From UHGV virus genome UHGV-1364187: a stretch of 64,000 nt of DNA; one strand, given 5' to 3'. A program made the position numbers and the translations under genes. Below are positions 2,917 to 57,909 of the stretch, in pieces (the stretch's first letter is position 1; the number at the start of each line of letters is the position of its first letter). The DNA is from a virus. Below the pieces are notes generated by a model, which was not told where the DNA came from, did not search any database, and saw only the letters and a list, made by a program, of their open reading frames with translations.

Positions 2917-3108
2917 ATTAATTCCTCCTTAATTAGACTATATTGATTTATTTAAATGTTTTCATATATAAACTAATAAAGAGACAATTATGACAAAAAA
3001 TAAAAGGTAGTAGACTATATATCTACTACCTTTTATTATTTAAAGTTCTATCTTTAATACTATCTATAACTTATTATTTTTCATATAAAATACACTCATT
3101 TTTTTTAA

Positions 3109-3735
3109 TTATAATTCTTCTACTGATTCTCTTCCATCATTATTTATAATATTGTATGGTTCTTTAACATTTACAATTATTAAATCTGAACAACTTGTGT
3201 CTGCTTTACTACCTAATTCTTCTACTACTCTTATTAAATTTTCATCATCTCTTTTTATATCTTCAAAATTAAAGTCTATTTTTTCGCATAATTTAACATC
3301 TTCGATTTCTTCATCATAATAAGTATTAGTAAAGAATATACTATCTGAATTAATACGATATGATATGCTCAAAAATAATTCTGTAACTAATTTAGCTTTA
3401 TTGTCATCTATAGTCTTAAAATATGCGTATACATCTGAATTTGTTCTAAGTTTTAGATATTCAATACATGCTAACACACTTAAATCAAACCTACCAAAAC
3501 AATCATTAATTACTATTTGTTTCGTATTTTCTTTATCACTATCATGTTTATAATAAGAATATAATTCATCTGAATATATCATCTCATTACCACGATAATA
3601 TTGTTTTTCAATACTAACTTCAGCTTCTTGTTCAAAGTATTCTTCCAATTCTTCATTTTTATGTCCTAAGAATAAAACTACTTTTTCTAATAAACCACTT
3701 TTTTCATTGAATCTTTCATCTAATACTTTAATCAT
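3109..3735 (-). CDS. Hypothetical protein, 208 aa
   Basis: ORF preceded by the conserved promoter/leader cassette (3740-3795). Confidence 0.5.
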   Translation of the reverse strand: MIKVLDERFNEKSGLLEKVVLFLGHKNEELEEYFEQEAEVSIEKQYYRGNEMIYSDELYSYYKHDSDKENTKQIVINDCFGRFDLSVLACIEYLKLRTNSDVYAYFKTIDDNKAKLVTELFLSISYRINSDSIFFTNTYYDEEIEDVKLCEKIDFNFEDIKRDDENLIRVVEELGSKADTSCSDLIIVNVKEPYNIINNDGRESVEEL

Positions 3736-3805: not shown

Positions 3806-4204
3806 TTACAAATCTTGTTTAAAATATACATATTCTATACCATCATCATCTGTTCTGACTATATAATCACTACCATCAGGAATTTCAACTACTCTAAATT
3901 TATCACTTTCATATTCTTCCACAATAGATATAAATAATTCATCTGTTCTGTTATAATCTGTAATAGCATTTATACTTATATAATTTGTTTCTAATATATC
4001 GTTACATACATAGAATGTATACTCTATACATATCATATTTTTTACATCATTAAGTTTACATTTTTCGTTTCTATTAAAGAGTACATTTTTAGAGTATATT
4101 TCTATACTCTCTGTATTATACTTACGTCTTAAGTACTCATATACAGTCTTCACTCTAAGAATGTTGTTTAATTGATTTGATAAAATTACTTTCATTATAA
4201 ACAT
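3806..4204 (-). CDS. Hypothetical protein, 132 aa
   Basis: ORF preceded by the conserved cassette (4205-4246). Confidence 0.5.
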   Translation of the reverse strand: MFIMKVILSNQLNNILRVKTVYEYLRRKYNTESIEIYSKNVLFNRNEKCKLNDVKNMICIEYTFYVCNDILETNYISINAITDYNRTDELFISIVEEYESDKFRVVEIPDGSDYIVRTDDDGIEYVYFKQDL

Positions 4205-4326
4205 CTCCTTTTAATATTATATTCATTTATATAATATATAATTATAATATTTATCAATTTCAATAATATTTGAAAGTATAAATTGTCTCTAACTTATCTA
4301 TAATGATTAAATAAGGAGGAATTAGG

Positions 4327-5367
4327 ATGGTCTTAGAAGAAAATTTAAATGATATGGAAGTTATCAAAAGATACAAGCAATTTTTTAAGGAGATGATTTG
4401 GTTTAATAAACCAAACATATCTGAGCAAGAATTAGAAGATGTAATGAATTGGTCAATACAGAAGAGAATCAAAAATTCATCATTAGAATTATATGATTCT
4501 TATAAGGAAAAACGAGCAGATTCATCAGTATTAGAATGGCTAGAATACTTCTATGCTAATGAACCAATTATAACTCCCAATGGGGTTATGTTTAAAAAAC
4601 ATAATGAAGAGCTTAATCCTGTGAATAAAATGATACAGGGATTCTTAAAAACACGTGCTAAATACAAAAAAGAAATGTTTAAATATCCTAAAGGATCTCG
4701 TGAATTTGAAAAATATAACCTACTTCAACTTCTCTCCAAGATTGATGCTAATAGTATATATGGTTGTTTAGGTAATTGGAGTGCTGTATATTATAACGTA
4801 AATGTTGCTAGTTCAGTTACAGCATGTGGTAAATCTTCTATTTCAGCAGCAGGTTTAGCATTTGAACAGTTCTTAGCAAATAACGTTAAATTTAGAAAGT
4901 TAGACGAAGTTATAGTATTTATTAATCATATCATTAAAGAAAAACCAAATAGAAAATTCAATGATAAAGATATTCTAGATAGAGATATTACAGTAGAAGA
5001 ATGTTTTATAAAAGTAATGTCTACATGTGGTCATGGTTATACTCCTTCTATGGAAGATTGTGAAATCATATGGGATATTATTAGTAAACTTAACAGTGAA
5101 GATCTTAATAGAATATACTATAAGAATAATCTATTAGAATTCTTTGACAATAAAGTAATGACTAATATGGTTATAGAAGTATTAAAGAGACTCAATAAAC
5201 CTTGGATGGATCCGAATAAAGTTCCAAAAGAAATTGAACTTGAAATGGATACAATGTGGGATTTAGTAAGTGAATATGTATTTTATAAATATCAAATCAT
5301 TGATAGACAAGATAGATTAGAGTTTCTTCCAAGAAAAATTACATGTATTATAGACACCGACTCTTTT
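4327..5367 (+). CDS. Family B DNA polymerase, C-terminal (palm/thumb) polypeptide, exon 1
   Basis: Carries motif B (LLQLLSKIDANSIYGCLG, the K..NS.YG pattern) and motif C (IIDTDS). The ORF stops immediately after DTDSFA at the intron boundary. Strong RBS taaggaggaattagg. Confidence 0.8.
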
Positions 5368-5772
5368 GCATAATAAACTGTTTTATTATGTAAATAGGAG
5401 CATTATATAGTAATATATAATGAAAACCCTTTTAATTGCTGGGAAGCCTTAAAGCTCACCTGCCTATATTTTAATGAATATAGGAACGAAAGTAGAAACA
5501 AGTGGTGAGATAGTATATGGTGTAAACCTAAGTACTGCAAACAATGGGTAATCAGCAGCGAAGTTTCTTATAAAGTTATAAGAAGAACGTTCAACGACTA
5601 TCGAAAAGACATGTTTATATAAACATGGAACTGAGTAGAGTACACTCAAGTGAGTGGAAATGGAGGGGGTCTTATTTTATATAAGATCATGATATAGTCT
5701 GCTCACTATGGAAACATAGTGAAGTTCATAAGAGAACTGCATAGAATTAACGACTCTATGTGAACATAAAGG
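5368..5772 (+). ncRNA. Group I self-splicing intron, with no homing-endonuclease ORF, inside the DNA polymerase gene between motif C and KKRY
   Basis: A roughly 400-nt ORF-free segment, GC-richer than its surroundings. A P7-like pairing is visible (ACGACTAT ... ATAGTCT). The core AATCAGCAGCGAAG..AAGAAGAACGTTCAACGACTATC is shared with two other introns in the window. The flanking exons are in the same frame. The exact splice junction is uncertain by about 3 nt. Confidence 0.6.
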
Positions 5773-6849
5773 AATATTTTGAACTTAGATTTTTGGTATA
5801 GATTTATCAAAGATAAAGTAATCGGTATTGATATGAAAATTAAACATGAAATGTATGACATTGCAGAAATCATTAAAGCTGATGAATTTGGTGATAGAGA
5901 AATGATGAAGCCTGCAGAGATAGTAGATATCGAAGATGATTATGATTTCTATGAAGATGAAACAGTAGAAATGGAAAGATTAATCAATCCTGCAAAATTA
6001 GTACCAAATGACTCATTAAGATATTCTATAATAAATATTATAGCATACTTATGTGGTAATATGATTAATGAAGAGATGGTATTATACACAAAACAGAACA
6101 ATTCTTATAGTCCTGATAGACCATGTAGTCTTATTATGAAGAATGAATTCTTATTTAAAAGAGTTTTATTGACAAATGTAAAGAAAAGCTACGCTAGCAT
6201 CATAGAGGTTCAGGAAGGAAATATAGTACCATCTTCCAGTTCATTGGACGTGAAAGGATTACAAATTAGAAAATCAACACTACCAAAAAGAACAAGAGAT
6301 CAATTACAAAGTATATTATATGAAGATATACTAAACTCTGGAGATAATCTCGATCAAAGATGCATACTCAAAGATATTATATTATTAGAAAAACAAATTT
6401 ATAAATCACTTACATCTGGTAGTAAAGAATACTTTAGACCAGCACAAGTTAAAGCTATGGGATCATATGAAAATCCACTAAGAATTTCTGGATTTAAGGG
6501 ATGTGTTGTATGGAATGAGTTAACAGATCTTAATACAGAAAAACATGATCTTAATATTAGAAATGCTGTTGATATTATCAAAGTAGTTTTAAATGCAAAA
6601 ACTGTCGATAAATTAAAAGATTTTCCTGATGTATATGAGAGAGCTGTGAAGCTATTAAACGATCCATCATTTGCAGGGGGAATTAATGGTATATCTGTAC
6701 CATTAGGAGTAGAAACACCAGAGTGGTTATATCAAATTATCGATTATAATACAATTATTAATGATAATTTATCAGTAATGCCATTAGAAAGTGTAGATAT
6801 AATTATTGGAAATTCCAATATAAACTATTCAAATATGGTGCAAATGTAA
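5773..6849 (+). CDS. Family B DNA polymerase C-terminal polypeptide, exon 2
   Basis: Contains the KKRY-type motif (NVKKSYASII) and thumb-like sequence. It is in frame with exon 1 after intron removal. There is an in-frame TAA at 5767, so exon 2 cannot begin before 5770. Confidence 0.7.
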   Translation, partial: NILNLDFWYRFIKDKVIGIDMKIKHEMYDIAEIIKADEFGDREMMKPAEIVDIEDDYDFYEDETVEMERLINPAKLVPNDSLRYSIINIIAYLCGNMINEEMVLYTKQNNSYSPDRPCSLIMKNEFLFKRVLLTNVKKSYASIIEVQEGNIVPSSSSLDVKGLQIRKSTLPKRTRDQLQSILYEDILNSGDNLDQRCILKDIILLEKQIYKSLTSGSKEYFRPAQVKAMGSYENPLRISGFKGCVVWNELTDLNTEKHDLNIRNAVDIIKVVLNAKTVDKLKDFPDVYERAVKLLNDPSFAGGINGISVPLGVETPEWLYQIIDYNTIINDNLSVMPLESVDIIIGNSNINYSNMVQM

Positions 6850-9689: not shown

Positions 9690-10697
9690 TTAAATTGCTA
9701 CTGAAGCTTTAATAGCATCACCACATTTATATCCATTAATCTTAATATCTTCTAGTTTAATATTTCTAATATCTTCGCCTAATAGATCTTTAGTAAATTC
9801 AATCTTAGGTAAGTCGTATAATTCTCTAGATAGATATTCTTTTGCCTGATCAATATGATTTTGGTAAATATGTGTATCGCCAAAATTATATGTCATTGTT
9901 CCAACTTGTAATCCACTAATAGCACCCATCATATGTAAAAAGATTCCATATTCTGCTAAATCAAATGGAACCCCTAGAATACTGTCAGCACTACGTTGAT
10001 TTACAATCATATGTAATTTATCATTGATTACTAAAAACTGGATAGAAAATACACAAGGTGGTAAATCTACATAAGGAACACTAGCAGTATTCCATGAATT
10101 AAGAATAATTCTTCTTGAATCTGATTTACTCTTAATAAGTTTTTGTGTAATATCTAATTGGTCTACAATGTTCACAACGACTTCTTGTTCTTGAGTATTC
10201 ATATTATTCATTTCTACATGTTTATTATACTTCCAAGCATTACCATAGATATCTTCATATACTGTAAGTTCTCTAGATGTAATTTCATCATTAAGAATCT
10301 TTTGTTCAAAGATATCGAGTTGTTCTCTATATAGTTTAGCAAATTCTTCATCCTTATCTTTTAATACAGTCCAATTGTCTGGGAATACTGGTCCTGTATA
10401 TTTTTCATTTTCTGGGCATTTTCCCTCAATATATCTTTTAAATTTCCATTCTGTCCAGATATGTACATTTTGCTCTAATAATGTCTTTAAGTTTTGTTCT
10501 CCATTAATGAACCATAAAAGTTCTTTAATAGCTGTTCTATAAGCAGTTCTTTTTCCAGTAACAATAGGAACACTACCATCTGATAAATCAAATTTCATAC
10601 TATAACCAGGAATACGGATAGTTCCTACTCCAGTTCGGTCTGTGCTAACTTCACCTGTTTCTAAAATAGTTTTAATCATTTCTTTATATTGTTTCAT
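9690..10697 (-). CDS. thyA: Thymidylate synthase (ThyA family)
   Basis: The N-terminus DRTGVGTIRIPGYSMKFDLS matches the ThyA pattern DRTGTGT..FG.QMRFDL. The ELLWF motif is present. The active-site cysteine sits in a DLPPC context (LPPCVFSIQF). Confidence 0.9.
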   Translation of the reverse strand: MKQYKEMIKTILETGEVSTDRTGVGTIRIPGYSMKFDLSDGSVPIVTGKRTAYRTAIKELLWFINGEQNLKTLLEQNVHIWTEWKFKRYIEGKCPENEKYTGPVFPDNWTVLKDKDEEFAKLYREQLDIFEQKILNDEITSRELTVYEDIYGNAWKYNKHVEMNNMNTQEQEVVVNIVDQLDITQKLIKSKSDSRRIILNSWNTASVPYVDLPPCVFSIQFLVINDKLHMIVNQRSADSILGVPFDLAEYGIFLHMMGAISGLQVGTMTYNFGDTHIYQNHIDQAKEYLSRELYDLPKIEFTKDLLGEDIRNIKLEDIKINGYKCGDAIKASVAI

Positions 10698-16995: not shown

Positions 16996-17035
16996 AAAAA
17001 ATAAAGAAGAGTCTAATGACTCTTCTTTTATTATT
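16996..17035. terminator. Intrinsic terminator
   Basis: aaaaaataaagaagagtctaatgactcttcttttatt. Confidence 0.65.
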
Positions 17036-17050
17036 TATTTTATATCTTTA

Positions 17051-17782: not shown

Positions 17783-18405
17783 TAATTAATCCCCTTTTCT
17801 TTAACAGTTTTTCTTTCTCTATCTAGAATCTTTTGTAAAGATTCTATTGCCGTATCATGTTGAATTTTGAATGATAGAGTATAATCTTTCTCTATATAAT
17901 TATCTAGATAATATATAGTCTTTTCAAGTATATCAAGTATATCATTACATTTGATATTATCATTCATATATCTCATACTAATCATAGCTTGTAATATGTC
18001 TAATACCATAAAATACAATGCAAATCTAGTATATCCATATTTTTTGTAATTATTTATATATAATTTAATAATGATAGTATTGTTTGTTGATTTTTGATCT
18101 ATTGAATGCACATAATATGTAATACTATCATCATTATACAAATCTTCTAATTTACCTATACAATACTCATATGTATTATTTATATCATTTTGTAATATAT
18201 TGCTTATACATATGATAGGTTCCATTGGACATTTAGAATATTTTACCATAGAATCTCTATATTTACTTAGAAATTCTGTAGTAGTGTTAAAGAATTCTAC
18301 AGAATCTTTAATTTTAAATTGATCAGTGTTTATTGGAAATTCTAGATCGATCTTATAAAAATACTTATATTTTAGAGTATCTATTAACTTGTTTAAGAAT
18401 TTCAT
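17782..18405 (-). CDS. Hypothetical protein, 207 aa
   Basis: ORF coupled to the downstream gene. Confidence 0.45.
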   Translation of the reverse strand: MKFLNKLIDTLKYKYFYKIDLEFPINTDQFKIKDSVEFFNTTTEFLSKYRDSMVKYSKCPMEPIICISNILQNDINNTYEYCIGKLEDLYNDDSITYYVHSIDQKSTNNTIIIKLYINNYKKYGYTRFALYFMVLDILQAMISMRYMNDNIKCNDILDILEKTIYYLDNYIEKDYTLSFKIQHDTAIESLQKILDRERKTVKEKGIN

Positions 18406-18479
18406 ACTACATACCTCCTAAGAATGGTACATTACTATCTTTTAGCTTTAATGTAAATTCTGTAATGAGATAATGATCT

Positions 18480-18788
18480 TTATCTTTTGCAACATGTTTT
18501 TTTTGGAATATATTTGTATAATATATTATCGTCATCAAGATAATCTAACGTGTTTGACATTAAATTATATCTATCATTTCCTACTGGTTCTTTTGTGATA
18601 GCTATAATAGGTCTATAATATTTATTCTTTGTGTATGCATAAACATTTTCAATTTCTGTTTCTACAAATTCGATACACTTATTAATAAATCCTTCCTTAT
18701 CTTTAATACTTTTTAAATCTTTAATAATTTGCATTGTTAATTCTTTGTTTTCCATAATAAAACATCTCCTTCTAATAATATTATTCAC
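18480..18788 (-). CDS. Hypothetical protein, 102 aa
   Basis: Conserved cassette upstream at 18773-18808. Confidence 0.45.
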   Translation of the reverse strand: MNNIIRRRCFIMENKELTMQIIKDLKSIKDKEGFINKCIEFVETEIENVYAYTKNKYYRPIIAITKEPVGNDRYNLMSNTLDYLDDDNILYKYIPKKTCCKR

Positions 18789-18840
18789 TTATATAATATA
18801 TAATTAAATTTTTTTTTAATCATATATTATTGTAGTGACT

Positions 18841-18925
18841 ATATTAAAGTTTTATTAAACTTCTAACAAGAAAGTAAGGGGCTTTTAAAGGCGTTGACCA
18901 AGAACCCTTAAAAGGTAGATAAGGG
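18841..18925 (+). repeat. 85-bp element containing TTGACC and a TAAGGG/CCCTTA dyad (copy A). An inverted copy lies at 60725..60808.
   Basis: The sequence tttattaaacttctaacaagaaagtaaggggcttttaaaggcgttgaccaagaacccttaaaaggtagataag is about 90% identical to the reverse complement of 60725-60808. Confidence 0.7.
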
Positions 18926-18980
18926 AAGAACAAAGATAAGACTTTAATACAAATACAGATATATAAAAGGAGATAATAAC

Positions 18981-19586
18981 ATGATTAAAAAATTCAAACA
19001 GCAATTACAATTTATGAAGTTAACAAAATTTCTACGTTCCAAAGACATATCAATCTCTAAAAATTCAAATAATGAATATACACTTAAAGATGATACAATT
19101 GTCTTTGGGACATTTACTAAACAACAATTAATGAACGAATTTTACAAAACAATGACAGATTTAAATATGAATAAATCTTTAACCAAAAATATTTCAATAA
19201 CAAATGTATACTTTTATAAACATCTTGAAGTTTTCTTAAAGATATTTAAGTTTGAAATATTATATTCATTATCAGAATCTTCATCAATTCACAAAGCTTA
19301 TTATAATGATGAAGAAATAACTTTTACACAACTTAATGATTGTGTTGGGATATGTAGTAAAGATAGTAAAATAATTGTATTATATAAATACAATGATGAT
19401 AATGGATTTGAACCATATATGTCTGAAGATAATATAATTCCACAACAGGTTAGTAATCTTACGAAATATTATATAAATCAGATTATTATTAGAACATTGA
19501 TAAATACTCTTAAAGAAAATGGTATTGCTATTTATAGCAATACTACATTATTCAAATACAATAATAAAATTATAGAGTTACAATAA
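18981..19586 (+). CDS. Hypothetical protein, 201 aa
   Basis: First gene of a plus-strand operon downstream of the 85-bp repeat element. RBS aaaaggaga. Confidence 0.5.
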   Translation: MIKKFKQQLQFMKLTKFLRSKDISISKNSNNEYTLKDDTIVFGTFTKQQLMNEFYKTMTDLNMNKSLTKNISITNVYFYKHLEVFLKIFKFEILYSLSESSSIHKAYYNDEEITFTQLNDCVGICSKDSKIIVLYKYNDDNGFEPYMSEDNIIPQQVSNLTKYYINQIIIRTLINTLKENGIAIYSNTTLFKYNNKIIELQ

Positions 19587-35202: not shown

Positions 35203-35841
35203 CTATAGAAATCTATATGTTATATATACATCTATTACAATTTTCTTCTTTTTATATACAGTAAACTTACTAGTGAAATATTTCAATTTATCTGTAGATT
35301 TATCATTATATATACTTAATGATAGTTTATCTCCTTTATTTATTGGTAATAATCCTTTATATAATGACATGATGTATCCATTCTTTCTATACATAACTAC
35401 TCCATCTTTAGCAAGCATTGATGATAATCTAACAATATCAGGATCATCTGTTATGTCATCATAAAAATGATCATATTTTACAAAATTAGATAATTTATAT
35501 ATTAGATTTATTCCATCTGGAGGAACAACTATATTCATTATAATAATAGGTTGACTCTCTCCATTTAACCATATATACAAATTACCATACATATCCATAT
35601 CTACACTAAATAAGTTCTTATCACATATTGCATATATATCAGGTATGAAATAACAATATATCAATCCATTATTAAATTCATCTAAGATAAATTCAGTTGT
35701 TTTTGCATATGAAAATAACTTATTTGATGATACTAAAGATGATCCGTGGATCATCAATATATCATCTGATTTAAGAATTTTTAGAATATCTATAATTGAA
35801 TTAACGGTTTGATTTTGCAAAGTTTTCATCGTAGTATTCAT
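35203..35841 (-). CDS. Hypothetical protein, 212 aa
   Basis: ORF overlapping the stop of the polymerase N-fragment. Confidence 0.45.
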   Translation of the reverse strand: MNTTMKTLQNQTVNSIIDILKILKSDDILMIHGSSLVSSNKLFSYAKTTEFILDEFNNGLIYCYFIPDIYAICDKNLFSVDMDMYGNLYIWLNGESQPIIIMNIVVPPDGINLIYKLSNFVKYDHFYDDITDDPDIVRLSSMLAKDGVVMYRKNGYIMSLYKGLLPINKGDKLSLSIYNDKSTDKLKYFTSKFTVYKKKKIVIDVYITYRFL

Positions 35842-37744
35842 ATTGAACTCCTTCCATAGCTTTATTCATATTATTATACGTTGATATGAATATAGCAGGT
35901 TTATATAATTCTTTAGAAAATTCTGCAGGTCTCATTAATAAATTATTATTTACAATTCTAGCAGGAATAAACATACCTGTATGTTTATCTACATATTCAT
36001 AGTTACTACAGATCATTTGTGTTGTAAAGAATTCTTCAATATCATGAAGCATTTCTTTGTAATCTGCAAGATGAAGATATCTATGACAAAATTCGACAAT
36101 ACTTTCAGATTGAAGACATTCAAACATATCTCCAGCTCTATCATATTTCTCATTATCAAATGGATTTTCTTTATCATAAATCGCGTTATGTGCAATAACT
36201 CTAGCGATAATAGTATTAGGTGCAATATTATGTTGATCTATTTCACTTGGGTACAGGGCTTTAAAGTCAAAATCATCGCCATTATCAAATAACCATGTAG
36301 GTTTTCCATTAATTTTAACAAATCCATCTCTAACAACATGAGTTGGATCTCCTACTAATGCACCTGCATATTTATTTTCGGGTTTTTCACCGAACTTGTT
36401 AGCATTACATCCCATTATTAATCCATCTTCATAAAACTCTTTTGTTCCTCTATTAGAAAGATATACAGTTTGCCTATGTGATTTTGGAATACGAGTATTA
36501 TTAAGTAAAGCTTTATTGAAAATATATCCTACATCATCACATCTTTGTTCAACTACTTTTTGTACTATTGTATCCATGATGTTATATAAAGTAAAATCTC
36601 TAAAATTATAATATTCTCTATCTGCAAATCTAAGATTAGGTGGAAATGCTTCATATTTACCAATCTTAGCTATCATTTTACCTATGGTATCCAATTTATA
36701 GTTAGGAAACTTTGATTGACCTTTACGTCTACTTGCAAAATGTTGCAATTGGTCCATGTAAATAGTATATCCACTTATAGCAGAATAATCACCTTTAAGT
36801 TCAAATTCATTTTTGTGTTGTTCGTCTATATAATATTTACATTGTTTGTATTTAAAATCTGGATGACACATGATATCCATTGGATCATATCCTAATTTTT
36901 TAATTCTTTCCATGATATATGGAATATCAAATGCCATGTTCCATGCCAATACAAAATCTGGTTGTGTTGAATTTATATACATAAATAAATCTTGAAGTAA
37001 AGTTATTTCGTCATCATAAAATACTTGATCATAAACATAATCTATTACTCCTAATCGAGTAGCTTGTTTCCAACCACCTACAGATTTAACAACAAAGTCA
37101 TAAGCAGCTTTTTGAAATTCTCCTCTCATAACTTCTTGTTCTAATTGAGCAACTTGTGGATTAGTTGGATCTCTAAGTATCAAAGTAGTAACAATTTTCA
37201 TTTTATCATTTACTAATGTGATTAAGTTTATTGGATAATCTCCATAGTGATCTGATAAATCTTCATCTCCAGGCATATCTTTAACTCTAACCTCAATATC
37301 TAGATATGCTTTTGATAAATCAAATAATTGATTTTGATAATTCTGACTGAATACAAATCTATAGTAATCATTTATATCCATATCAGCTAAGAATACTTCG
37401 TTAAGTGTAAATAATCTCTTATTTGCACTAAAATTTTTATTCTTCATATTTTCATAAAAGTATTCTAAATTTCCAGTTTCTTTAGCTATACTTTTTAATA
37501 AATCTTTATATTTACAAGTAACTGGACGTACTCTTTCTTTTTCTATGAATAGATGATGATAATCTAATATTTCATTATCATTAGCCATAAAATAAGTATA
37601 AGTTGGATTTACAATATCTTGATGATGTTTCAATCCAGTATCATTATCTCGATATATAACAGTCATTACATCTTTATCATCGTACTGACCGTAGATTGTA
37701 TCAAGAATTGTTAAGTTTGATCCTTTATCATATCCTTTAATCAT
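35801..37744 (-). CDS. Family B DNA polymerase, N-terminal polypeptide (3'-5' exonuclease domain plus motif A)
   Basis: Exo I YLDIEV, Exo II FDIPYI, Exo III YNIMDT, and pol motif A DFDFKALYPSEI. The ORF ends about 135 aa after motif A, with no motif B or C. Confidence 0.8.
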   Translation of the reverse strand: MIKGYDKGSNLTILDTIYGQYDDKDVMTVIYRDNDTGLKHHQDIVNPTYTYFMANDNEILDYHHLFIEKERVRPVTCKYKDLLKSIAKETGNLEYFYENMKNKNFSANKRLFTLNEVFLADMDINDYYRFVFSQNYQNQLFDLSKAYLDIEVRVKDMPGDEDLSDHYGDYPINLITLVNDKMKIVTTLILRDPTNPQVAQLEQEVMRGEFQKAAYDFVVKSVGGWKQATRLGVIDYVYDQVFYDDEITLLQDLFMYINSTQPDFVLAWNMAFDIPYIMERIKKLGYDPMDIMCHPDFKYKQCKYYIDEQHKNEFELKGDYSAISGYTIYMDQLQHFASRRKGQSKFPNYKLDTIGKMIAKIGKYEAFPPNLRFADREYYNFRDFTLYNIMDTIVQKVVEQRCDDVGYIFNKALLNNTRIPKSHRQTVYLSNRGTKEFYEDGLIMGCNANKFGEKPENKYAGALVGDPTHVVRDGFVKINGKPTWLFDNGDDFDFKALYPSEIDQHNIAPNTIIARVIAHNAIYDKENPFDNEKYDRAGDMFECLQSESIVEFCHRYLHLADYKEMLHDIEEFFTTQMICSNYEYVDKHTGMFIPARIVNNNLLMRPAEFSKELYKPAIFISTYNNMNKAMEGVQYEYYDENFAKSNR

Positions 37745-37852
37745 TCCTAATTCCTCCTATTTTAATATGTTTACGTCATTATTATAATGTTTCATGATAT
37801 ATAAAAATATATAAAACCTTAAATCTGTAACATTTTTGTAAAATGATTAAAA

Positions 37853-47543: not shown

Positions 47544-49265
47544 CTATTTTTCTATATATGCTGGTACGAATGTTCCTGGGATAATTAAAGAATTTTCTTC
47601 TACCTTCCTCACATAATCTACAGTATTCTGTAGACAACATGCAGCTTCTTTCAGAATTTCAATTTCTTCATCATCACCTTGCCCAAGAACTTTCTTCTTA
47701 AATGTTGCACCTTCAACAAGCCCTACAGATTCTTTATATAGATTCATTAATTCACTAAATTTTTCTTCCCAAGAATTTGGTTCTTCAAAATCTTTAAAGA
47801 ATCCATCTTCTCTTAGATTAGAATATGGAGTAATATTTCCAGTTAATCCTGGATTAGAATCACTACTTGAACATGTATCAATATTACATAAGTTAGATAC
47901 ATCCATACGCCTTTGAATTTCAGATACATTAGAGCCAGTCTTTTCTCCAATACCAGATATACCTTTATAACTAAATTTAGTACAGAATATAGCATCATCT
48001 TCGTTAACACTATTTCGATAATTTACTAAACTACATTTTGTAATCTGTGATAATAGATAGTTTGGAGAAATATTGATAGCTTTTCTTATAGTAGAAATAG
48101 TTGCACGTTTACCACTTACTGAAATACGCTTAATACCATTAGATAATTTTATAGCATATAAAGATGCTAGATATTCATCTAATCTTACTCTCTTTAATGA
48201 TGAATCTTGGTTATCTTTCATCATAAGATCAGAGAAGTTTCTAATCATCCATAGTAATACTTTATAAATATCATCTTTATACTCTAAAGGTAATTTAATA
48301 GCAGCTTTTGTAGATGGATCGTAAATACCTTCTAGAGATTCTAACAGTTTAACACCTTTTTCATGACTGTATTTAGTGAGAGTTACATCATTATCCAAAC
48401 GATCTATCCAGTAATCTATAGTAAACAGATCTTCATATACTACATCTTTGTTAATCACTTTTAAGATTGTATATATAAGAGATTGTGTTACATAATCACT
48501 ATCGAATATCATTTTTGGAACTTGAATATAAATCTCATGTTTTTCAAATATATACATATTAGAATTATCATCTGGTTTGTCTTTTAATACCTTTATGCAA
48601 CCAATACCAGATTGCATAAAAGTACCCATCAAACCAAACTTAGCTAATAGATATTTGAATACTATAATATTCCTATTGAATATATTAGATGAATATAATA
48701 CAATAGGAAGTTCTTCACCATCAATAGTAGTCAATTTATTATGGAATCTAAATATCTTAATAGGCATAAATATAGTCTTTTGTGTTGTTGAAGCACATTT
48801 GGCATTAGTATTAGCATTATTATATGTGCTACCATCTACTATCTGAAACATTGGTAAATAGTAATTTCCTTGTAATTCAAAGTAATATTTATCTGTATAT
48901 CTTGGTAAATTAATAAGTACATCCAAATCTTCATACTTATCTCTAATACCAATTGTATAGTGCACAATCATAAGTCTAGTCTTAGAATTTCTAATTGGAA
49001 TATAATCATAGATATTTTCAATAGGTTTAGATATCCTATCAATCCTATCTTGTTCATATTTTCTCATAGTATTATAGATTTCTATTGGACTATCGATGAC
49101 TTCAAATGAATTTACTTTAATAGTGAAATATTTATCACGTTGACAAGTGAGAATTACATTCTGTAATTCTCTTACTATATTATCATCATTTCTTTGAAAT
49201 AGTTGCGGATTGAATCTTTCCCTTTCATCAAATGAGTAATTGTATAAAAGTTCAGGAATGTTCAT
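47544..49265 (-). CDS. Phage multisubunit RNA polymerase beta subunit, N-terminal fragment
   Basis: The C-terminal part LLSQITK..KFSYKGISGIGEKTGSNVSEIQRRMDVSNLCNIDTCSSSDSNPGLTGN parallels beta [51 protein letters not shown]. The ORF stops where the rest of beta would begin. Confidence 0.5.
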   Translation of the reverse strand: MNIPELLYNYSFDERERFNPQLFQRNDDNIVRELQNVILTCQRDKYFTIKVNSFEVIDSPIEIYNTMRKYEQDRIDRISKPIENIYDYIPIRNSKTRLMIVHYTIGIRDKYEDLDVLINLPRYTDKYYFELQGNYYLPMFQIVDGSTYNNANTNAKCASTTQKTIFMPIKIFRFHNKLTTIDGEELPIVLYSSNIFNRNIIVFKYLLAKFGLMGTFMQSGIGCIKVLKDKPDDNSNMYIFEKHEIYIQVPKMIFDSDYVTQSLIYTILKVINKDVVYEDLFTIDYWIDRLDNDVTLTKYSHEKGVKLLESLEGIYDPSTKAAIKLPLEYKDDIYKVLLWMIRNFSDLMMKDNQDSSLKRVRLDEYLASLYAIKLSNGIKRISVSGKRATISTIRKAINISPNYLLSQITKCSLVNYRNSVNEDDAIFCTKFSYKGISGIGEKTGSNVSEIQRRMDVSNLCNIDTCSSSDSNPGLTGNITPYSNLREDGFFKDFEEPNSWEEKFSELMNLYKESVGLVEGATFKKKVLGQGDDEEIEILKEAACCLQNTVDYVRKVEENSLIIPGTFVPAYIEK

Positions 49266-50723: not shown

Positions 50724-53042
50724 CTAAGAAAGTATACTATTCATATTTGCAAGAAATTCTTCTAGAGTTATAATAGGAATGCCATATTTCTGTGCTGATA
50801 TTATTTTTGTAGATGGATTGTTAAATGCATCAATATTAACTACGATAAGTAAATCAGTATCTCTAGTTACAGATTTATCACTTATATCGTGTCCTAATGA
50901 TGTTACTAGATCAACTAATTCTTTATCTCTAAAGCCAGTAAATCTAATCTTCTTTCCACCACATGCATATCCAAAAGAAGATCTCATATTAACAAACGTT
51001 TTCTCTATATACATTAAATCTTCTATAAAGAATATACGTCTATCAATTACAGTTTTTGCTTTTACTTTTCCAATACCTTTGATATTGACTAATCTATTAT
51101 ATAAGATATCATCTGGAAGATTTATTATATCGTGTAATGTTATCTTATTAAGTATAAGCTTCCATGTTTCTTCAGCCATACTATCAAATCCTATAGCTCC
51201 TACAATCTGATAGTCCCATATATTAGATTCTTTTAATGCTTCTCTTTGAGCTATGAATTTATCCGCCATTATAGAACTATTAAGAGCATTTACTATAATA
51301 TCTCTATCGAGTTCCATTAATTTATTGAAAGAGAATACATTAGTTTTCAATACACTTGCTTCTGCAAATTGATCTATTCCTAACTTATCTAGCATATTAA
51401 CAGTTCTTGCAACTATTCTTCCTTTACATGCTAAATTTTTACAATATGCAGATGCACCAGATTTTGATATCTCTAATGGAGAACCACATACTGGACAGTG
51501 TGTTGGAAATGGAATAGGTGGAGTTACACTATCTATTTCATCATTATAACTATTATTAGGCTTAGTTACATATGGCATAACATCATTTACATACTCTACA
51601 TCTATAATATTACCCTCTCTTAATCCCAATTCCATAAATCTTTCATAAGAATGACCAGATGATTTAGGATGAATAGTTCCCATAAATTCAACTGGTTCGT
51701 AATGTATCATAGGTGTAATATATCCATCTTGTCCAACTGTATAAGTATATCCTTTAAATATAGTAGATTTCTTTAATGGATTAAACTTAACAGCTTGAGC
51801 ATATTTATTAACAGCATTTTCTCTACCCAATGCATGTTTGATATCTTCATCCATATATTCTATAACTACACCATCATATTGGAAATCGATATAATCTCTC
51901 ATCATTTCAGCTTCTTCAACAAACTTCTTAATTTGATATAAGATAGAAGTAAGATTTCCACTAATGATAGTATAGGTATTATATACACCTCTAGTATAAT
52001 ACTTATTAAGAAATTCTAACTGTTCATTTTTAGGTATATCTAATGAACACGCTAATGGTACTAATGTTACATATTCCATATATTTCCATGCATCTGAAGA
52101 TGAAAATAGACCACTAATAGCAGATCTGCAGTTCTTATAATTATATCCTTTAGCTTGATTGAATCTATATAGATTACTATATGTCATAATAGCCTCAAAC
52201 TGTACACCAAAATCTTCTTCTAATGGAATATTTTGTGGTGCATTAGGAAATATATAATTTCTCATAATAGGAGTTAAATCTGCAGCTTCGCCACCTATGG
52301 CATCCCCTCTTGATGTGAATAATCTACTTACCATAGAACCTTCGACAGATACTCCATCAAATTTAAGCATAAGTAATACATTAATAATTCTATTAGGATC
52401 TAGTATACCACGTTTAACATGTTCTCCAAAGAAATCCCTTTCTAATACTCTTACATTAGAATCATCAAATACTCCTAGTTCTTTTGCTTGATAATTCATT
52501 ACATGTTTACATTTTTCAAGAGTACCAACAAGATTTGGATATTGATGAGCTGTATTTCTCTTTCTTTTATCTATATTATTAGCAAATATAGCTGGAACTC
52601 TCATACATTCTCGTCTTGTTATTGGTGGTTGAAATAATAGCATATCAGTATATAATAAATCTTCATCATTAAGAATATCATTTACAAATACAGCTGGAGT
52701 AATCATATCAACTATATCATTTTTAACAAAGTTCTCATCTTTTGTTTGTATAGGTTTTCCTCCAACAGGTGCAATATATCCATGATTGACATATGATTCT
52801 CTTAATAAATCATACATTCCATCTTCTAATACTAATCCTTCACCATAGTTTTCCCATACAGTATTACAATACTCTAATATAGTTTGTGATATAGATGCAT
52901 CATCATTTTCCCATGCATTATTTAATAAATACATTACTGCATCATTTAATATTCTTTTTGCTAATGGATTTATACTTCCATTAAGATATAGGTCAGAACA
53001 AATCTGACCTATATTATTATAATATTCATTATTAGTATACAT
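50724..53042 (-). CDS. ligA: NAD-dependent DNA ligase (LigA family)
   Basis: Adenylation motif KFDG (MLKFDGVSVEG). Zinc finger CPVCGSPL..CKNLACKG. HhH motif GIGKVKAKTV. C-terminal BRCT-like region. Confidence 0.85.
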   Translation of the reverse strand: MYTNNEYYNNIGQICSDLYLNGSINPLAKRILNDAVMYLLNNAWENDDASISQTILEYCNTVWENYGEGLVLEDGMYDLLRESYVNHGYIAPVGGKPIQTKDENFVKNDIVDMITPAVFVNDILNDEDLLYTDMLLFQPPITRRECMRVPAIFANNIDKRKRNTAHQYPNLVGTLEKCKHVMNYQAKELGVFDDSNVRVLERDFFGEHVKRGILDPNRIINVLLMLKFDGVSVEGSMVSRLFTSRGDAIGGEAADLTPIMRNYIFPNAPQNIPLEEDFGVQFEAIMTYSNLYRFNQAKGYNYKNCRSAISGLFSSSDAWKYMEYVTLVPLACSLDIPKNEQLEFLNKYYTRGVYNTYTIISGNLTSILYQIKKFVEEAEMMRDYIDFQYDGVVIEYMDEDIKHALGRENAVNKYAQAVKFNPLKKSTIFKGYTYTVGQDGYITPMIHYEPVEFMGTIHPKSSGHSYERFMELGLREGNIIDVEYVNDVMPYVTKPNNSYNDEIDSVTPPIPFPTHCPVCGSPLEISKSGASAYCKNLACKGRIVARTVNMLDKLGIDQFAEASVLKTNVFSFNKLMELDRDIIVNALNSSIMADKFIAQREALKESNIWDYQIVGAIGFDSMAEETWKLILNKITLHDIINLPDDILYNRLVNIKGIGKVKAKTVIDRRIFFIEDLMYIEKTFVNMRSSFGYACGGKKIRFTGFRDKELVDLVTSLGHDISDKSVTRDTDLLIVVNIDAFNNPSTKIISAQKYGIPIITLEEFLANMNSILS

Positions 53043-53563
53043 TAGATATCAATCCTTTCTAGTGTAGAAAAATACATACTATAATGTTTATCCTGTGTTA
53101 CATGATAAGTTTCGTCTGTTATAACCCACTTATCTCTAGTTAATCTATCTGCTGGAAAGTAAGTATCGCCATCAAAGAATTCATCAAATTTTGTTACGAA
53201 AATTCTCTTAGTATAATCTAAGAATTCTCTATATACCCATCCTCCTCCAATAATAAAAATATCATCATCAGGATTTTCACAATCTAATAACAATATATCA
53301 TTTACAGAATGAACAACTTCTACACCAGGAATCTTTATATCTTTATGACTTAATACTATATTTCTTCTATCTGGCAATGGTCTACCAATACTTTCATAAG
53401 TCTTTCTTCCCATCACTACAGTATGACCTGTAGTGATGTCTTTAAAATGTTTTCTATCTTCTCTAACTATTCCCCAAGGTAATTCATTATCTCTACCTAT
53501 TATCATATTTCTAGATATAGCAACAATCATATTAATCATTATAATCTCTCCAATCTTTAACAA
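53042..53563 (-). CDS. folA: Dihydrofolate reductase
   Basis: MINMIVAISRNMIIGRDNELPW...VVMGRKTYESIG is the canonical DHFR N-terminus. Confidence 0.9.
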   Translation of the reverse strand: MLKIGEIIMINMIVAISRNMIIGRDNELPWGIVREDRKHFKDITTGHTVVMGRKTYESIGRPLPDRRNIVLSHKDIKIPGVEVVHSVNDILLLDCENPDDDIFIIGGGWVYREFLDYTKRIFVTKFDEFFDGDTYFPADRLTRDKWVITDETYHVTQDKHYSMYFSTLERIDI

Positions 53564-53985
53564 TATATCCAGGAATAAATGTAGCTGGAATATTATTTGG
53601 TTTTATTTCTGCTGGTACAAGACAATTATTATATAATGCTCTTTCTTGCTCCAACATTATTTGAGCTGGAGTGTACATTCCTTCCTTATTAGGAGCTATA
53701 TTATTTGTATCTATAGCTGGAACAAAATATGCTGGTCTTATTCTCTGAACTAATGTCTTCTTAAATACCATTCTTAAGCCTATAGCTTTAAGATAAGTAT
53801 GCATAATTTGTGCAGTTATATTATTAGTTTCATTATCTATTTGTACATCCACGTTATATGGATCATCAGTAAGAATATTCTTAGCTAATCTTCTACCATG
53901 TGTACTAGCACTATTGATAAGTAGCATTACTAATAATAACTCAGCATCTACGTGCATTAAATTTGAAGCTTCCATAGACCCACCA
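53532..53985 (-). CDS. RNA polymerase beta subunit C-fragment, exon 2
   Basis: GGSMEASNLM..INSASTHGRRLAKNILTDD..LKAIGLRMVF parallels the beta C-terminus GGQRFGEMEV..SDDVNGRTKMYKNIVDG..LKEIRSLGINI. Confidence 0.55.
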
Positions 53986-54448
53986 CTACACAAATTGTGT
54001 AGCAGACTATATCACCACCATATACTTTAAAAAAGTACTTAGGTGCCTCCCATTTCGGATATACTATATCCTACTCTACTCACTTCGTCTATATCTAATT
54101 TATTAGATATACCTTATTTTTAACTAGATTACTAGTATATTAGCTTTCGATAGTCGTTGAACTTTAATCTTTGAATATAGTTTTATATTTATATATTATA
54201 TTTGATATTATTCAAAGATTCTTAGCTGCTGATTGTAGATCTGTTACGTTAACTTAGCACCTATTATTGAATAGGCTTTTATCTCAGCATATCAACACAG
54301 AATCAATTTTTTCTGTCTTTCGACGACATTCACACCCATCCTTACGGATCATGTTGTAGTTTGATTCTGAATAACTACTTCCCAGACAAATTAAAGAGGT
54401 TTTTACTTCTATCTTTTTCAAGATAAAAGGCACATGTATGTCTATGCA
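53986..54448 (-). ncRNA. Group I intron in the RNAP beta gene
   Basis: Read on the minus strand it shares AATCAGCAGCtAAG..GTTCAACGACTATCGAAAG..GATATAGTCTGCT with the polymerase intron. Splicing CCAGT|..intron..G|TGGTGGG restores the frame as ..YSRTPVGGSMEAS.., which parallels the conserved beta segment ..YSLVTQQPLGG... Confidence 0.6.
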
Positions 54449-56219
54449 ACTGGTGTACGACTGTATGGTGACTCGTATAATTTACTTGCACGAGATCTTG
54501 TATTTTGCCCTCTTACATTAGTTGCTGATAAAGATGTTGTTGAGAATTTCTCTTCTGCAACTTGTTTTAATCTGTAATAATATATATGACCAGCAATAAG
54601 TTTTCTTCTAGTAGGTATGGCTCTATAATTACCCATAGAATCTTTTTGTTGAATCATAACTGTATAAGGTTCGATCCAATCAAAATGTTTATACATTTGA
54701 TCTAATAAATCTATACCATATGATTCTGTTATAGGTTCTATTTGGAAATGAATACAATCATAAGACTTGATACTGTCTAAGAATAATTTCTTATCTTGTT
54801 CTGACATATTGTCTACTATATTTTTTGTATATCTGTACATATTAGGACTTACAAAAGATAAGAAATCAAAGTACATTTGAAACGCTTCTTCATCTGTGCA
54901 TAATGGAGATCTCATTCTTTCTATAATTCTAGAACTTATAAAATTAGATTCCATTTCAATATGTTGTCCAGGATTAAGACGTCCTACTATACCTGCAGAA
55001 TTCCATATTGCGTCTGCATGTTTTCCATTGTCAAATAAAGGCATTAATTCTTCTGGTAAGAATCCAGCAATAACACCTTTACCTCCATATCTATTAGTAA
55101 TCTTATCACCAATTTGTATACGACTAACTTCATATACCATGAAATCAATTACTAAGAAAGAGAATTCATTATCTTTTTCATTCAAGAAATGTTGTCCGTC
55201 TAATATTCTCTTATGAAATAGATATAACTCTTCTAAGTCATATGATTTTTTAATACTTTTATCATTTACAATTGGTTCTAATACATTAACTATTTCTCTA
55301 GAGAATCTTTGTTGATTCATATAAATCATAGCTAATTGAGAGTATTTAGAATCTGTAAATAGTAATTCTGGATCGTTACAATATATATCACAATCTATTA
55401 GTACACCTGACCCTATTGTAACTTTAACATCAGAAGTCATTATTTTTCTTAATCTATCTTGGCTTGCAGAATAAAATTGTTCTTCATTTTTCTTTAGACG
55501 AGTACCCATAAGAATACCATCTTTTACCTCTTCTCCTACAAAAGGACATACTTTATAACTACCATCTTTACCATAAAGATTCAATGGAACGTTATTAGTA
55601 TTTATACTTATACGTTTTGGTTTGAATACTGGAGTATCAAATTTTGGACGAACAGCTTCGCTTAGAATAATACCATCTTCGCAAGTCTTAGCTATATTCA
55701 TAAATACTCCATTAAGATTTATACCATCCATCTTATTACCATAATCATCATAAGATGAGCTTTTTCTTATTACATCACCTTGTTTAATTACATCACCAAC
55801 TTTTTTACTATCCATATATTTATTATTATACTTATATCCATTTGTTTCTGTAAGATAATTATAATCTACTCTATGATATATAGTATAAGAATTATTAGTT
55901 GGATTGCGTAATATAAGAATATAATCATGTTCTGGTAAATGTTCAAATTTTGATATCTTAGCAACTATCTCATATTCCATATCAGCTAACAATACAGCAC
56001 TATTATATCTACCATATTCATTAGCATATCCAGTATCACAGAATGCGATTTCTGAATTAATAAGATCTGTTCTATGATCATTATGAACATTATACATCTT
56101 CTTTCTTGATGCTGCATTATGATTATTGAACGGTTCTTTCAATCCTTTAGACAATACGTAATCTAATTTCTTTGGAACGTATTGATCTATTCTTGTTAGT
56201 GGATCTGTTATTATTGCCA
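54449..56219 (-). CDS. RNA polymerase beta subunit C-fragment, exon 1
   Basis: GDKITNRYGGKGVIAG matches the beta motif (..NRHGNKGV..). The probable start is the ATG at 56219 after RBS caaggaggag; the track start at 56286 is upstream in frame. Confidence 0.6.
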
Positions 56220-56301
56220 TGTTTCTTCTCCTCCTTGAATGTTTAATATATGATAGATATAAGAAAAAGTTCATTATATCTATCATATATATAATATATA
56301 A

Positions 56302-56763
56302 TTATGCGACGTTTTGGATCATAGATAATATGTCATCTGTAGATGATGTTAACCCTACTTCATCTTCTTCTGGTTCTTCATAAGTATCAGATAGCATAGA
56401 TTTCATCTCTTCTAAGACAATTGTATTAAATACTGATCTAAACTCTGAGTCTGTATTAAGTTTATTCTTAAATTGTTTTTGAGAGAATTTCATATCACTT
56501 CTATCACCTAGGTACAAATATGCACCTGCACCATTAAGAACTCCACGTTGTTTTAAGAACATAAACATTGATAAATCTGCATCAAATCCATCACTTTGAC
56601 TAAATACTAATGGAACAGATTGACCAGCTTTATTTGTTCTTGATTTAACAAGTGTTACCTCTGTAATGTTTCCGTCTAAGTCGAATACTTCTCCTTCTTT
56701 TAACTTAGATCCATCATCAAATCTAATAATATTATTTGCTAAGTATATAGGTGTATTGCCGCC
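56302..56763 (-). CDS. UvsX/RecA-family recombinase, exon 2
   Basis: GGNTPIYLANNIIRFDDGSKLKEGEVF..VTLVKSRTNKAGQSVPLVF parallels UvsX GGGTGPMYSADTVFIIGKRQIKDG..VEKSRTVKEKSKF and RecA TTGGNALKFYASVRLD. Confidence 0.6.
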   Translation of the reverse strand, partial: GGNTPIYLANNIIRFDDGSKLKEGEVFDLDGNITEVTLVKSRTNKAGQSVPLVFSQSDGFDADLSMFMFLKQRGVLNGAGAYLYLGDRSDMKFSQKQFKNKLNTDSEFRSVFNTIVLEEMKSMLSDTYEEPEEDEVGLTSSTDDILSMIQNVA

Positions 56764-57138
56764 CATAATTTTATATTACATACGATCGCTACTCGTATTC
56801 TATAATTTTCATTATAGATTAGACTATATCTTCATCCTTATTATTAAGGAGCACTCCATTTCGAATACGCTTGTATTCTACTCTATTTCTAGATAGTCGT
56901 TGAACGTTCTTCTCATATAAGAAGCTTCGCTGCTGATTGTCCATTACAAATAAGACTTAGGATTTTGTCCATATCTCATACTAACCGCTTTTTTCTACTT
57001 TCGTAACCATCACGCTTATCTTTACAGATTACGTTGTGGTGGGTTAGTCTTTAGGAGTTCCCAGCAATTAAGAGTGTTTCCTAAATGCTCATTACTGAAC
57101 ATTCTCCCCAGTTATGCAATACGTTTAGGGAGTGATTC
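56764..57138 (-). ncRNA. Group I intron in the recombinase gene
   Basis: Read on the minus strand it has the same core as the other two introns: AATTGCTGGGAA..CGAAAGTAGAAA..AATCAGCAGCGAAGCTTCTTAT..AAGAAGAACGTTCAACGACTATC..GATATAGTCT. The boundaries are approximate. Confidence 0.55.
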
Positions 57139-57909
57139 GTCAACCTTCAAATATGATACTTGTGCTTTCTTACGTTGAGCAGGTGTAATAGCAACTGCTT
57201 GTGTAATATGATTGATTACAAATAAGATAATATTAGCAGCTTTTAATAATGGAATAATAGTTCTAAAGATCTTAGCATTAGCTTTAGCTGTTGCTGTTGT
57301 ACTCATCTGTCCTGACATTTCTTCTTCGTCAGAAAATTTCTCAGGCATTAATAATGCTAATGAATCTAAAATAACTACTGTAGGCTGTAATTTGTATAGC
57401 CTATTACCAAATTCATCATATAAACCAGTATCATATTCAAACTCACTTCTATTAGCAAGTTTGATATCACTAATCATCTTGATTCTTTGGAAGAAGTTTT
57501 CACATGTGATACCAGTATTTCTATGAATATATTTATCTTTAGCCTCTTCAGGTGTCATTTTAGCAAGTTTAAATAGTCTACTATTACTAATACCACCCTC
57601 AATATCTTCATGATATATAGCAGCATTAGGAAATGGTTTAACAATATTTCCAGCTGCTTGAATAGTCCATGTAGTTTTACCACATCCAGATCTACCAATA
57701 ATCATTACCATTGATCCATCTGCAATTCCAATAGAATAATATTGATATTGCTGACCGTCTGGAGTTTTTCCAATAGCTACAGTACCATTTCTAAAATCAA
57801 ATGTAAGAAATCCAGTTGAATATCCAACAGGTGTTTCTGTTTCAACTTTCATTCTATAATCTTTAGATTTTTCTACAGATTTTCTAAACATATCTACCAA
57901 TAAGCTCAT
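57139..57909 (-). CDS. UvsX/RecA-family recombinase, exon 1
   Basis: Walker A GRSGCGKTTWTIQAA and Walker B VVILDSLALL. NAKIFRTIIPLLKAANIILFVINHI parallels UvsX TMKSLFRIVTPYFSTKNIPCIAINHT. Confidence 0.65.

Follow-up and report, generated by a model that had tools for sequence, protein, structure and literature searches.

The window considered here is a 64-kb stretch (64,000 nucleotides (nt), with a G+C content of 26.8%) of the 256-kb viral genome UHGV-1364187, and it belongs to the European Nucleotide Archive (ENA) contig ERZ27229639 k119_250412 of 256,505 bp. Two genes in the window, designated DNAP-N and DNAP-C, each encode part of a family B DNA polymerase (Table 1). The two are convergent, their 3' ends lying 28.95 kb apart; a first-pass annotation of the same DNA had rightly placed the two loci on opposite strands, but had given their separation as 30 kb. 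The 3' end of DNAP-N is overlapped by a conserved open reading frame (ORF) of 212 amino acids (aa), and the DNAP-C gene is interrupted by a group I intron.

Table 1. Features of the two polymerase loci and of other parts of the 64-kb window
Feature	Coordinates	Strand	Description
DNAP-N subunit gene	35801..37744	-	647 aa; N-terminal domain, 3'-5' exonuclease, first palm segment with motif A
Shine-Dalgarno sequence and spacer, AGGAGGAATTAGG	37746..37758	-	One base before the DNAP-N ATG
Shine-Dalgarno sequence and spacer, AGGAGGAATTAGG	4314..4326	+	Directly before the DNAP-C ATG
DNAP-C exon 1	4327..5364	+	346 codons; N-terminal helical segment, fingers/motif B, helical insertion, motif C
Group I intron	5365..5772	+	408 nt, no ORF; directly after the DTDS codons
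DNAP-C exon 2	5773..6849	+	358 codons and stop; remaining palm, KKSY, thumb
Conserved ORF, unknown function	35203..35841	-	212 aa; overlaps the DNAP-N 3' end by 41 nt
Group I intron-like element	~56762..57132	-	Interrupts the UvsX-like recombinase gene (exons 57112..57909 and 56302..56766)
Group I intron-like element	~53981..54428	-	Follows the RNA polymerase beta gene at 54442..56286
Split multisubunit RNA polymerase, beta-type gene	54442..56286		
Split multisubunit RNA polymerase, beta-type gene	47544..49265		
Thymidylate synthase homologue	9690..10697	-	phrog_160, E=1e-84
Dihydrofolate reductase (DHFR)	53042..53563	-	phrog_316, E=2e-44
SbcC-like ATPase			Encoded in the window
NAD-dependent ligase			Encoded in the window
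Large terminase			Encoded in the window
Tail sheath			Encoded in the window
UvsX-like recombinase			Encoded in the window
ORF of 395 aa	59051..60238	-	Weak Tubulin/FtsZ GTPase-domain match
ORF, phrog_16527	3109..3735	-	Unknown function; neighbouring paralogue of the next
ORF, phrog_16527	3806..4204	-	Unknown function; neighbouring paralogue of the preceding

DNAP-N carries the three exonuclease motifs of a family B polymerase, Exo I (DIEV at residue 149), Exo II (FDIPY at 272) and Exo III (YNIMD at 387), with D149, E151, D273 and D391 as the exonuclease residues, and these are followed by motif A (DFDFKALYPS, residues 491-500), in which the catalytic aspartate is assigned as D493 through alignment to D411 of RB69 gp43. 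The motifs are those named in the first-pass annotation, and the exonuclease domain is matched by Pfam DNA_pol_B_exo1 (E=2e-9). A helical tail of ~147 aa closes the protein after motif A. The match of DNAP-N to Pfam DNA_pol_B is short, covering profile positions 63-98 only. In a phmmer search of PDB sequences DNAP-N finds only weak archaeal PolB matches, and a family profile is needed to reach RB69; a profile of 50 DNAP-N homologues aligns to residues 100-436 of RB69 gp43 (E=5e-16), a span that takes in D114/E116, D222, D327 and the motif A residue D411. In conservation alignments, which comprised 50 homologues per half at 41-85% identity, residues D149, E151, D273, D391, D491/D493 and Y498 are invariant, and conservation of the tail is poor beyond approximately residue 580. 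The AlphaFold2 (AF2) model of DNAP-N has a mean predicted local distance difference test score (pLDDT) of 81, with residues 1-450 above 85, and its top Foldseek match is RB69 gp43 (E=9e-17, ~475 columns). When the chain is modelled alone, the piece of the palm that holds motif A (residues 457-514) falls below a pLDDT of 50 and the tail is also weak, a pattern in the model that fits a segment folding only against a partner.

DNAP-C, which after removal of the intron would be a product of 704 aa, contains the remaining polymerase motifs. Motif B (KIDANSIYG) lies at residue 138 (K138, N142, Y145, G146), motif C (DTDS) at residue 343 (D343, D345), and a KKSY motif, previously misread as KKRY, occupies spliced residues 483-486 (K484, Y486). 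Between motifs B and C is a helical insertion of ~150 aa (residues ~186-335). The protein matches Pfam DNA_pol_B at profile positions 101-200 (E=1.2e-12), and both exons score above the cut-off of 25.7 bits for PF20286 (divDNApol, divergent family B DNA polymerase), exon 1 with 42.0 bits and exon 2 with 98.3 bits, the latter matching profile positions 426-697 (E=4.6e-28). A profile of 50 DNAP-C homologues aligns to residues 556-595 of RB69 gp43, which include motif B, and to residues 620-696 of poxvirus F8; the part of DNAP-C that aligns consists of the finger helices, residues 98-149. The AF2 model has a mean pLDDT of 81, its best Foldseek matches are RB69 gp43 and T4 gp43 (E=6e-7), and G146, D343, D345, K484 and Y486 are invariant in the 50 homologues.

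DNAP-N and DNAP-C thus map to complementary, non-overlapping parts of RB69 gp43. Since the Pfam DNA_pol_B matches cover profile positions 63-98 in the one protein and 101-200 in the other, their coverage abuts without overlap, the RB69 profile alignments are complementary in the same way, and RB69 gp43 and T4 gp43 are the best Foldseek matches of both models. The proposal that neither ORF is a complete polymerase and that the two together make one is therefore upheld, and the halves are not paralogues of each other. The break falls within the palm, between the motif A helix and the fingers, with the DNAP-N profile ending at RB69 residue 436. Extra sequence, mostly helical, is present at three places: residues 520-647 of DNAP-N, residues 1-95 of DNAP-C and residues ~186-335 of DNAP-C. 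Additional linker sequence at the split had been noticed before and is real, but it amounts to 147 aa after motif A and 137 aa before motif B, rather than ~135 and ~100 aa.

The DNAP-C gene had been described as a single intron-interrupted ORF from 4327 to 6849. The interruption is indeed a group I intron, but the coding sequence consists of two exons, which were called as separate ORFs (4327..5373 and 5779..6849, both on the + strand). The intron matches Rfam RF00028 at positions 5377..5721 with 81.6 bits, against a gathering score of 50. In-frame stop codons occur at 5371, 5374, 5761 and 5767, and therefore the true intron boundaries must lie outside 5377..5721. The 5' splice site is placed after U5364, the partner of G5397 in P1, where CUCU of the exon pairs with GGAG, and the 3' splice site after G5772, the last base of the intron. 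The minimum free energy fold of the intron has a z-score of -6.2 and forms the P1 helix, including the U5364-G5397 pair. A single junction fits the reading frame, the rule of a U before and a G at the end of the intron, and homology; exon 1 then ends ...IIDTDS and exon 2 begins NILNLDFWY..., a junction that is gap-free against the intron-less homologues of ~700 aa and against AR9 gp151 (DTDS-NFLMLDPFY). Translation of the unspliced message would end two codons past DTDS, with loss of the thumb, and expression of DNAP-C would consequently require splicing, as had been proposed. From these features, we infer that a self-splicing group I intron is removed from the DNAP-C mRNA. The intron contains no ORF and so is without a homing endonuclease. 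As with group I introns of other phage replication genes, the insertion interrupts the host gene where its codons are most conserved.

The closest precedent for this gene pair is phage phiKZ. DNAP-N matches phiKZ gp82 (E=5e-9, with an hhalign probability of 96.5%), and DNAP-C matches phiKZ gp50 (BLASTP E=1e-15, hhalign 98.5%). The phiKZ proteins, gp82 (DNAP-N, 638 aa) and gp50 (DNAP-C, 731 aa), assemble 1:1 into a stable complex with extensively interdigitated chains, as seen by cryo-electron microscopy (Basu et al., bioRxiv, 1 Oct 2026; PMC13648687). The complex has an RB69-like architecture, and its break lies inside a large helical 'palm-insertion' domain made from residues 589-638 of DNAP-N and residues 1-98 and 221-419 of DNAP-C (PMC13648687). 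Of the active-site aspartates, the N chain provides D562 of motif A and the C chain D426 of motif C, and the D562A substitution in DNAP-N abolishes synthesis; a third protein, Rhc, which consists of an RNase H and a clamp-like domain, raises activity (PMC13648687).

The window enzyme shares much with that of phiKZ. The N-terminal domain, the exonuclease and motif A are on one chain, and motif B, motif C and the thumb are on the other; the chain sizes are similar (647 and 704 aa in the window), the genes are tens of kb apart, the C subunit matches PF20286, and extra sequence is present at the tail of the N chain, at the head of the C chain and between motifs B and C. There are also differences. 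The window enzyme does not have the Pseudomonas-specific 'little finger' insertion of phiKZ, its DNAP-C gene has a group I intron, and its genes are convergent whereas those of phiKZ are on the same strand. In addition, an acidic insertion of ~65 aa follows motif C of DNAP-C (5434..5640; spliced residues ~370-415) and contains the conserved sequences DEFGD and DYDFY.DE. This segment is found across the uncultured clade to which the window belongs, is absent from AR9 and phiKZ, and is modelled with an AF2 confidence below 50; judged from the model, it may be a disordered interaction motif. Searches of the PDB with profiles of both halves, and with Foldseek, returned no phiKZ polymerase chain among the matches.

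Taken together, DNAP-N and DNAP-C very probably constitute a replicative, two-subunit family B DNA polymerase with a composite active site. In this scheme, the DNAP-C mRNA would first lose the 408-nt group I intron, since unspliced RNA would yield a truncated protein without the thumb. The two chains would be translated separately and would pair 1:1 in a heterodimer held together without covalent bonds. One helical domain around the split, equivalent to the phiKZ palm insertion, would be built jointly from the DNAP-N tail, the N-terminal ~95 residues of DNAP-C and the ~150-residue insertion between motifs B and C, and the polymerase active site would be composite, with each chain contributing one metal-binding aspartate.

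The present analysis establishes the gene structure, the complementary domains, the catalytic conservation, the splice junction, the homology of the chains to their counterparts in phiKZ (gp82/gp50) and AR9 (gp131/gp151), and the fact that the split is universal in the family. Several considerations weigh against carrying the scheme further than this. That these two proteins form a heterodimer is argued from homology to phiKZ, the only phage for which a stable 1:1 complex with polymerase and exonuclease activity is shown, and the same extrapolation underlies the composite active site and the fold proposed for the insertion domain. Identity to the phiKZ proteins is only 22-28%, and the alignments cover the exonuclease and thumb regions and not the insertion segments, so that the equivalence to the palm-insertion domain is based on position and predicted helicity. 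A homologue of the third phiKZ subunit, Rhc, was not found in the 64-kb window of the 256-kb genome, and no RNase H-type match was returned by Pfam and/or PHROGs scans of 42 larger ORFs (all but one of those of at least 199 aa, together with four smaller ones). In the case of the intron, splicing is deduced from sequence, and the Rfam alignment sets P1 22 nt downstream, implying a 5' splice site after U5386; this position is impossible because of the in-frame stop codons.

The same two-chain organization extends well beyond phiKZ. Metagenomic homologues number more than 1300 for DNAP-N and more than 700 for DNAP-C, and their lengths are uniform: nearly all of the best 120 DNAP-N matches are 630-700 aa, and nearly all of the best 120 DNAP-C matches are ~700 aa. 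No fused polymerase is present among the best 150 representatives of 50%-identity clusters (down to 28% identity), the longest of which is 817 aa. Because no fused form occurs among these representatives, the sequences fit an old and stably maintained split. The closest cultured relatives of both halves, at 24-32% identity, are AR9/PBS1, BpSp, the Staphylococcus S6-like phages, among them MarsHill and Madawaska, Yersinia phage phiR1-37 and Listeria phage LPJP1, and in all of these the halves are separate genes, 2-40 kb apart. In AR9, to which DNAP-N and DNAP-C match with E=2e-54 and E=3e-46, respectively, gp131 (554 aa) and gp151 (641 aa) are 15 kb apart on the same strand. The two halves are ~20 kb apart on the same strand in S6, ~37 kb apart on opposite strands in LPJP1, and 2 kb apart on opposite strands in phiR1-37 (g170 and g167); in phiKZ, gp82 and gp50 are 35 kb apart on the same strand. 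The AR9 group also resembles the window in genome type, with split multisubunit RNA polymerases and introns. The split is already reflected in the GenBank labels of the polymerase genes, AR9 gp131 being a 'DnaQ-like exonuclease and partial catalytic domain' and its partner a 'catalytic subunit'. In contrast to the window, both AR9 polymerase genes lie behind annotated early promoters, and the AR9 N-half is shorter.

The earlier view that this arrangement is unusual is therefore not sustained, because the same split is annotated in AR9, phiR1-37 and their relatives and has been solved for phiKZ. The polymerase design of the window is not novel, having been annotated in AR9-like phages, noted for all phiKZ-type jumbo phages in 2021 (PMC7824862) and solved for phiKZ, and conceptually the finding adds little to a known two-chain enzyme with a composite active site. 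What it adds is the reach of the design into a large uncultured clade, represented by hundreds of metagenomic contigs of 220-265 kb, the recognition that related group I introns have repeatedly inserted into the DNAP-C gene no more than a few codons from motif C, and a candidate accessory ORF next to DNAP-N.

An alternative is that DNAP-N and DNAP-C are independent enzymes, a stand-alone proofreading exonuclease and a self-sufficient polymerase that meet loosely in the replisome. This is how the phiKZ group was described in a comparative study, in which phiKZ-type ('group 1') jumbo phages were said to have a divergent family B polymerase without a fused exonuclease, the latter being encoded elsewhere (Iyer et al. 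2021; PMC7824862), and the exonuclease part of DNAP-N does fold confidently alone. However, motif A with its invariant aspartate is on DNAP-N and absent from DNAP-C, which consequently is without one of the two catalytic aspartates. In phiKZ, moreover, D562A in the N chain abolishes polymerisation, and the chains are described as 'extensively interdigitated' (PMC13648687). Independence of the two proteins is accordingly regarded as improbable.

Two further possibilities concern the fate of the two chains and of their genes, and both are highly improbable. In the first, split inteins at the break would ligate the halves by protein trans-splicing, a route taken by some split polymerase genes of phages and archaea. 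Split inteins are known in phage polB genes, for instance in gp43B-1/B-2 of Aeromonas phage Aes508 and in Pseudomonas phage MIJ3 (PMC6892783), but neither half has a Pfam intein or Hint match at E<=0.1, the DNAP-N tail is poorly conserved after residue ~580, and the solved phiKZ chains stay separate. In the second, an intact polB would have been broken by rearrangement, leaving non-functional relics while another enzyme replicates the genome. Nothing specific favours such decay, although the distance between the genes and the presence of an intron could superficially suggest disruption by mobile DNA. Against it, each half starts with an ATG behind a strong ribosome-binding site, none of the catalytic residues varies among the 50 homologues, the lengths are kept across hundreds of metagenomic relatives, and the window yielded no further DNA polymerase. 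One candidate for a second DNA polymerase, a PHROG 'polymerase' match of the gene at 47544..49265, was rejected, as the gene encodes an RNA polymerase beta subunit.

The remaining possibility, that a contiguous gene was torn apart by misassembly, owes what plausibility it has to the source being a short-read metagenome assembly, and its probability is negligible because an independent assembly, ERZ2661536, has an identical DNAP-N gene that ends at the same stop and is overlapped downstream by the same ORF, the layout recurs in a 46%-identical relative, and the cultured relatives are all split alike. In that relative, one 30.8-kb contig carries the N-half at 1222-3195 (+) and a C-half without an intron at 17005-19086 (-); the two are 13.8 kb apart and convergent around tail and portal genes, as in the window. 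The concern, raised with the first-pass annotation, that the separation might be an artefact is thereby answered, and the two-subunit polymerase is retained as the best explanation.

Polymerases split by other routes are known, and these differ from the enzyme described here. In T4-like phages of Aeromonas and Acinetobacter, gp43 is split into 43A and 43B in the fingertip of the fingers, with the cistrons adjacent (2 bp to 3 kb) on one strand, and is often accompanied by homing endonucleases, introns or split inteins (PMC3061061). The likeness to the window lies in a two-polypeptide family B replicase whose chains are not ligated and in the mobile elements within the gene, and DNAP-N matches T4-like gp43A at E~1e-7. 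In the window, however, the break comes before the fingers, with the two genes convergent and 29 kb apart; moreover, the T4-type enzyme has no palm-insertion domain. The PolB of Methanothermobacter thermautotrophicus is also encoded by distant genes, 85 kb apart, and is split in the palm and assembled non-covalently (Kelman et al. 1999, summarised in PMC3061061). This is an archaeal cellular enzyme, and its split lies beyond the fingers, ~83 residues towards the C terminus, whereas the break in the window is on the opposite side of motif B. The T4-like and Methanothermobacter splits are independent events, and the window enzyme is without their defining features.

The insertion of introns around motif C is recurrent in DNAP-C genes, as the genes of LPJP1 and of Staphylococcus phage AH12 are interrupted there too. 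In LPJP1, the intron lies just before DTDS, a few codons off the insertion point in the window, and in AH12 the gene is interrupted inside this motif, between D and TDS, and again near the KKxY region. Introns homologous to that of the window are found in the LPJP1 DNAP-C gene (nhmmer E=3.5e-12) and in the AR9 virion RNA polymerase gene (E=3e-16). For the DNAP-C genes of LPJP1 and AH12, as for the window at 53.3-54.7 kb, Rfam reports no intron, but nhmmer with a profile of related introns did detect the LPJP1 and window elements. This is of practical use for annotation, since the DNAP-C exons of LPJP1 (L012, 99715..102220) and AH12 (L013, 16337..18626) are deposited as separate, unrelated hypothetical proteins.

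Two further elements in the window resemble group I introns and are related to that of DNAP-C, and both were missed by Rfam (Table 1). The element that interrupts the gene for the UvsX-like recombinase was found by nhmmer with a single sequence (E=6e-20), and the element that follows an RNA polymerase beta gene was found with a profile built without it (E=6.5e-21). The core blocks AATTGCTGGGAA, AATCAGCAGCGAAG, GTTCAACGACTATCGAAA and GATATAGTCT are common to these two elements and the DNAP-C intron.

The proposal that separate loci would impose regulatory coupling between the two halves is not substantiated, as the searches of the upstream regions for motifs established no shared promoter or other signal of co-regulation. 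Each half has its own divergent intergenic region of ~110 nt. The 13-nt sequence AGGAGGAATTAGG, which comprises the Shine-Dalgarno sequence and spacer, occurs in only two exact copies in the window, one before each polymerase half. The identity of these copies carries weak significance, however, because this phage commonly uses AGGAGGAAT as a ribosome-binding site. The sequence ACTTATCTATAAT was considered as a promoter shared by both halves and was rejected, as it is not enriched. A further 13-mer, AATTATATATTAT, is present in the window in 8 exact copies, and in 21 copies with no more than one mismatch against an expected 6.9 +/- 2.8. Examples are the sites at 3778, 4231, 12611, 15456, 18793, 50630, 56291 and 60363, these eight being on the minus strand, and most copies are upstream of minus-strand genes. 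AATTATATATTAT is closely similar to AAATATATATTAT, which is annotated as an early promoter in AR9, and probably serves the virion RNA polymerase of this phage as its promoter. It is absent in the sense orientation upstream of both polymerase halves.

The 212-aa ORF that overlaps the end of DNAP-N belongs to a fast-evolving family, and relatives have an ORF of 195-212 aa in the same position (for instance L011, E=6e-15, and L007, E=4e-11). The ORF has no match in Pfam, PHROGs, the PDB or the phage database. The corresponding position in AR9 is held by the RNase H gp130, but an assignment of the 212-aa ORF as an AR9-like RNase H was rejected, as the two have no similarity. In one metagenomic protein, P0247 (817 aa), a homologue of the ORF is fused in frame to DNAP-N (hhalign 97.8%); the fusion comes from one contig of 4.4 kb, and a frameshift error could account for it. 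The ORF product may be an accessory partner of the polymerase, although its membership is uncertain. The stronger proposal, that it is a third, lineage-specific replicase subunit of this low-G+C clade, translationally coupled to DNAP-N and able to replace the Rhc clamp-like processivity factor of phiKZ, is considered unlikely. Were it true, assembly of the replicase would be controlled by separate promoters, by splicing of DNAP-C and by translational coupling of DNAP-N and its partner.

As part of the same overall explanation, the phage is very likely an uncultured jumbo phage of the AR9/phiKZ type. AR9 and PBS1 are uracil-DNA phages. The window encodes a thymidylate synthase homologue and a DHFR, which suggests that this phage makes thymine or a modified pyrimidine for its own DNA; because of these two genes, it may not use uracil-DNA in the manner of AR9 and PBS1. 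The two neighbouring ORFs of phrog_16527 are divergent from the DNAP-C gene. The 395-aa ORF has a weak match to the Tubulin/FtsZ GTPase domain (E=9e-5, under the Pfam cut-off), and may encode a PhuZ-like tubulin, in which case the phage would be linked to the nucleus-forming jumbo phages.

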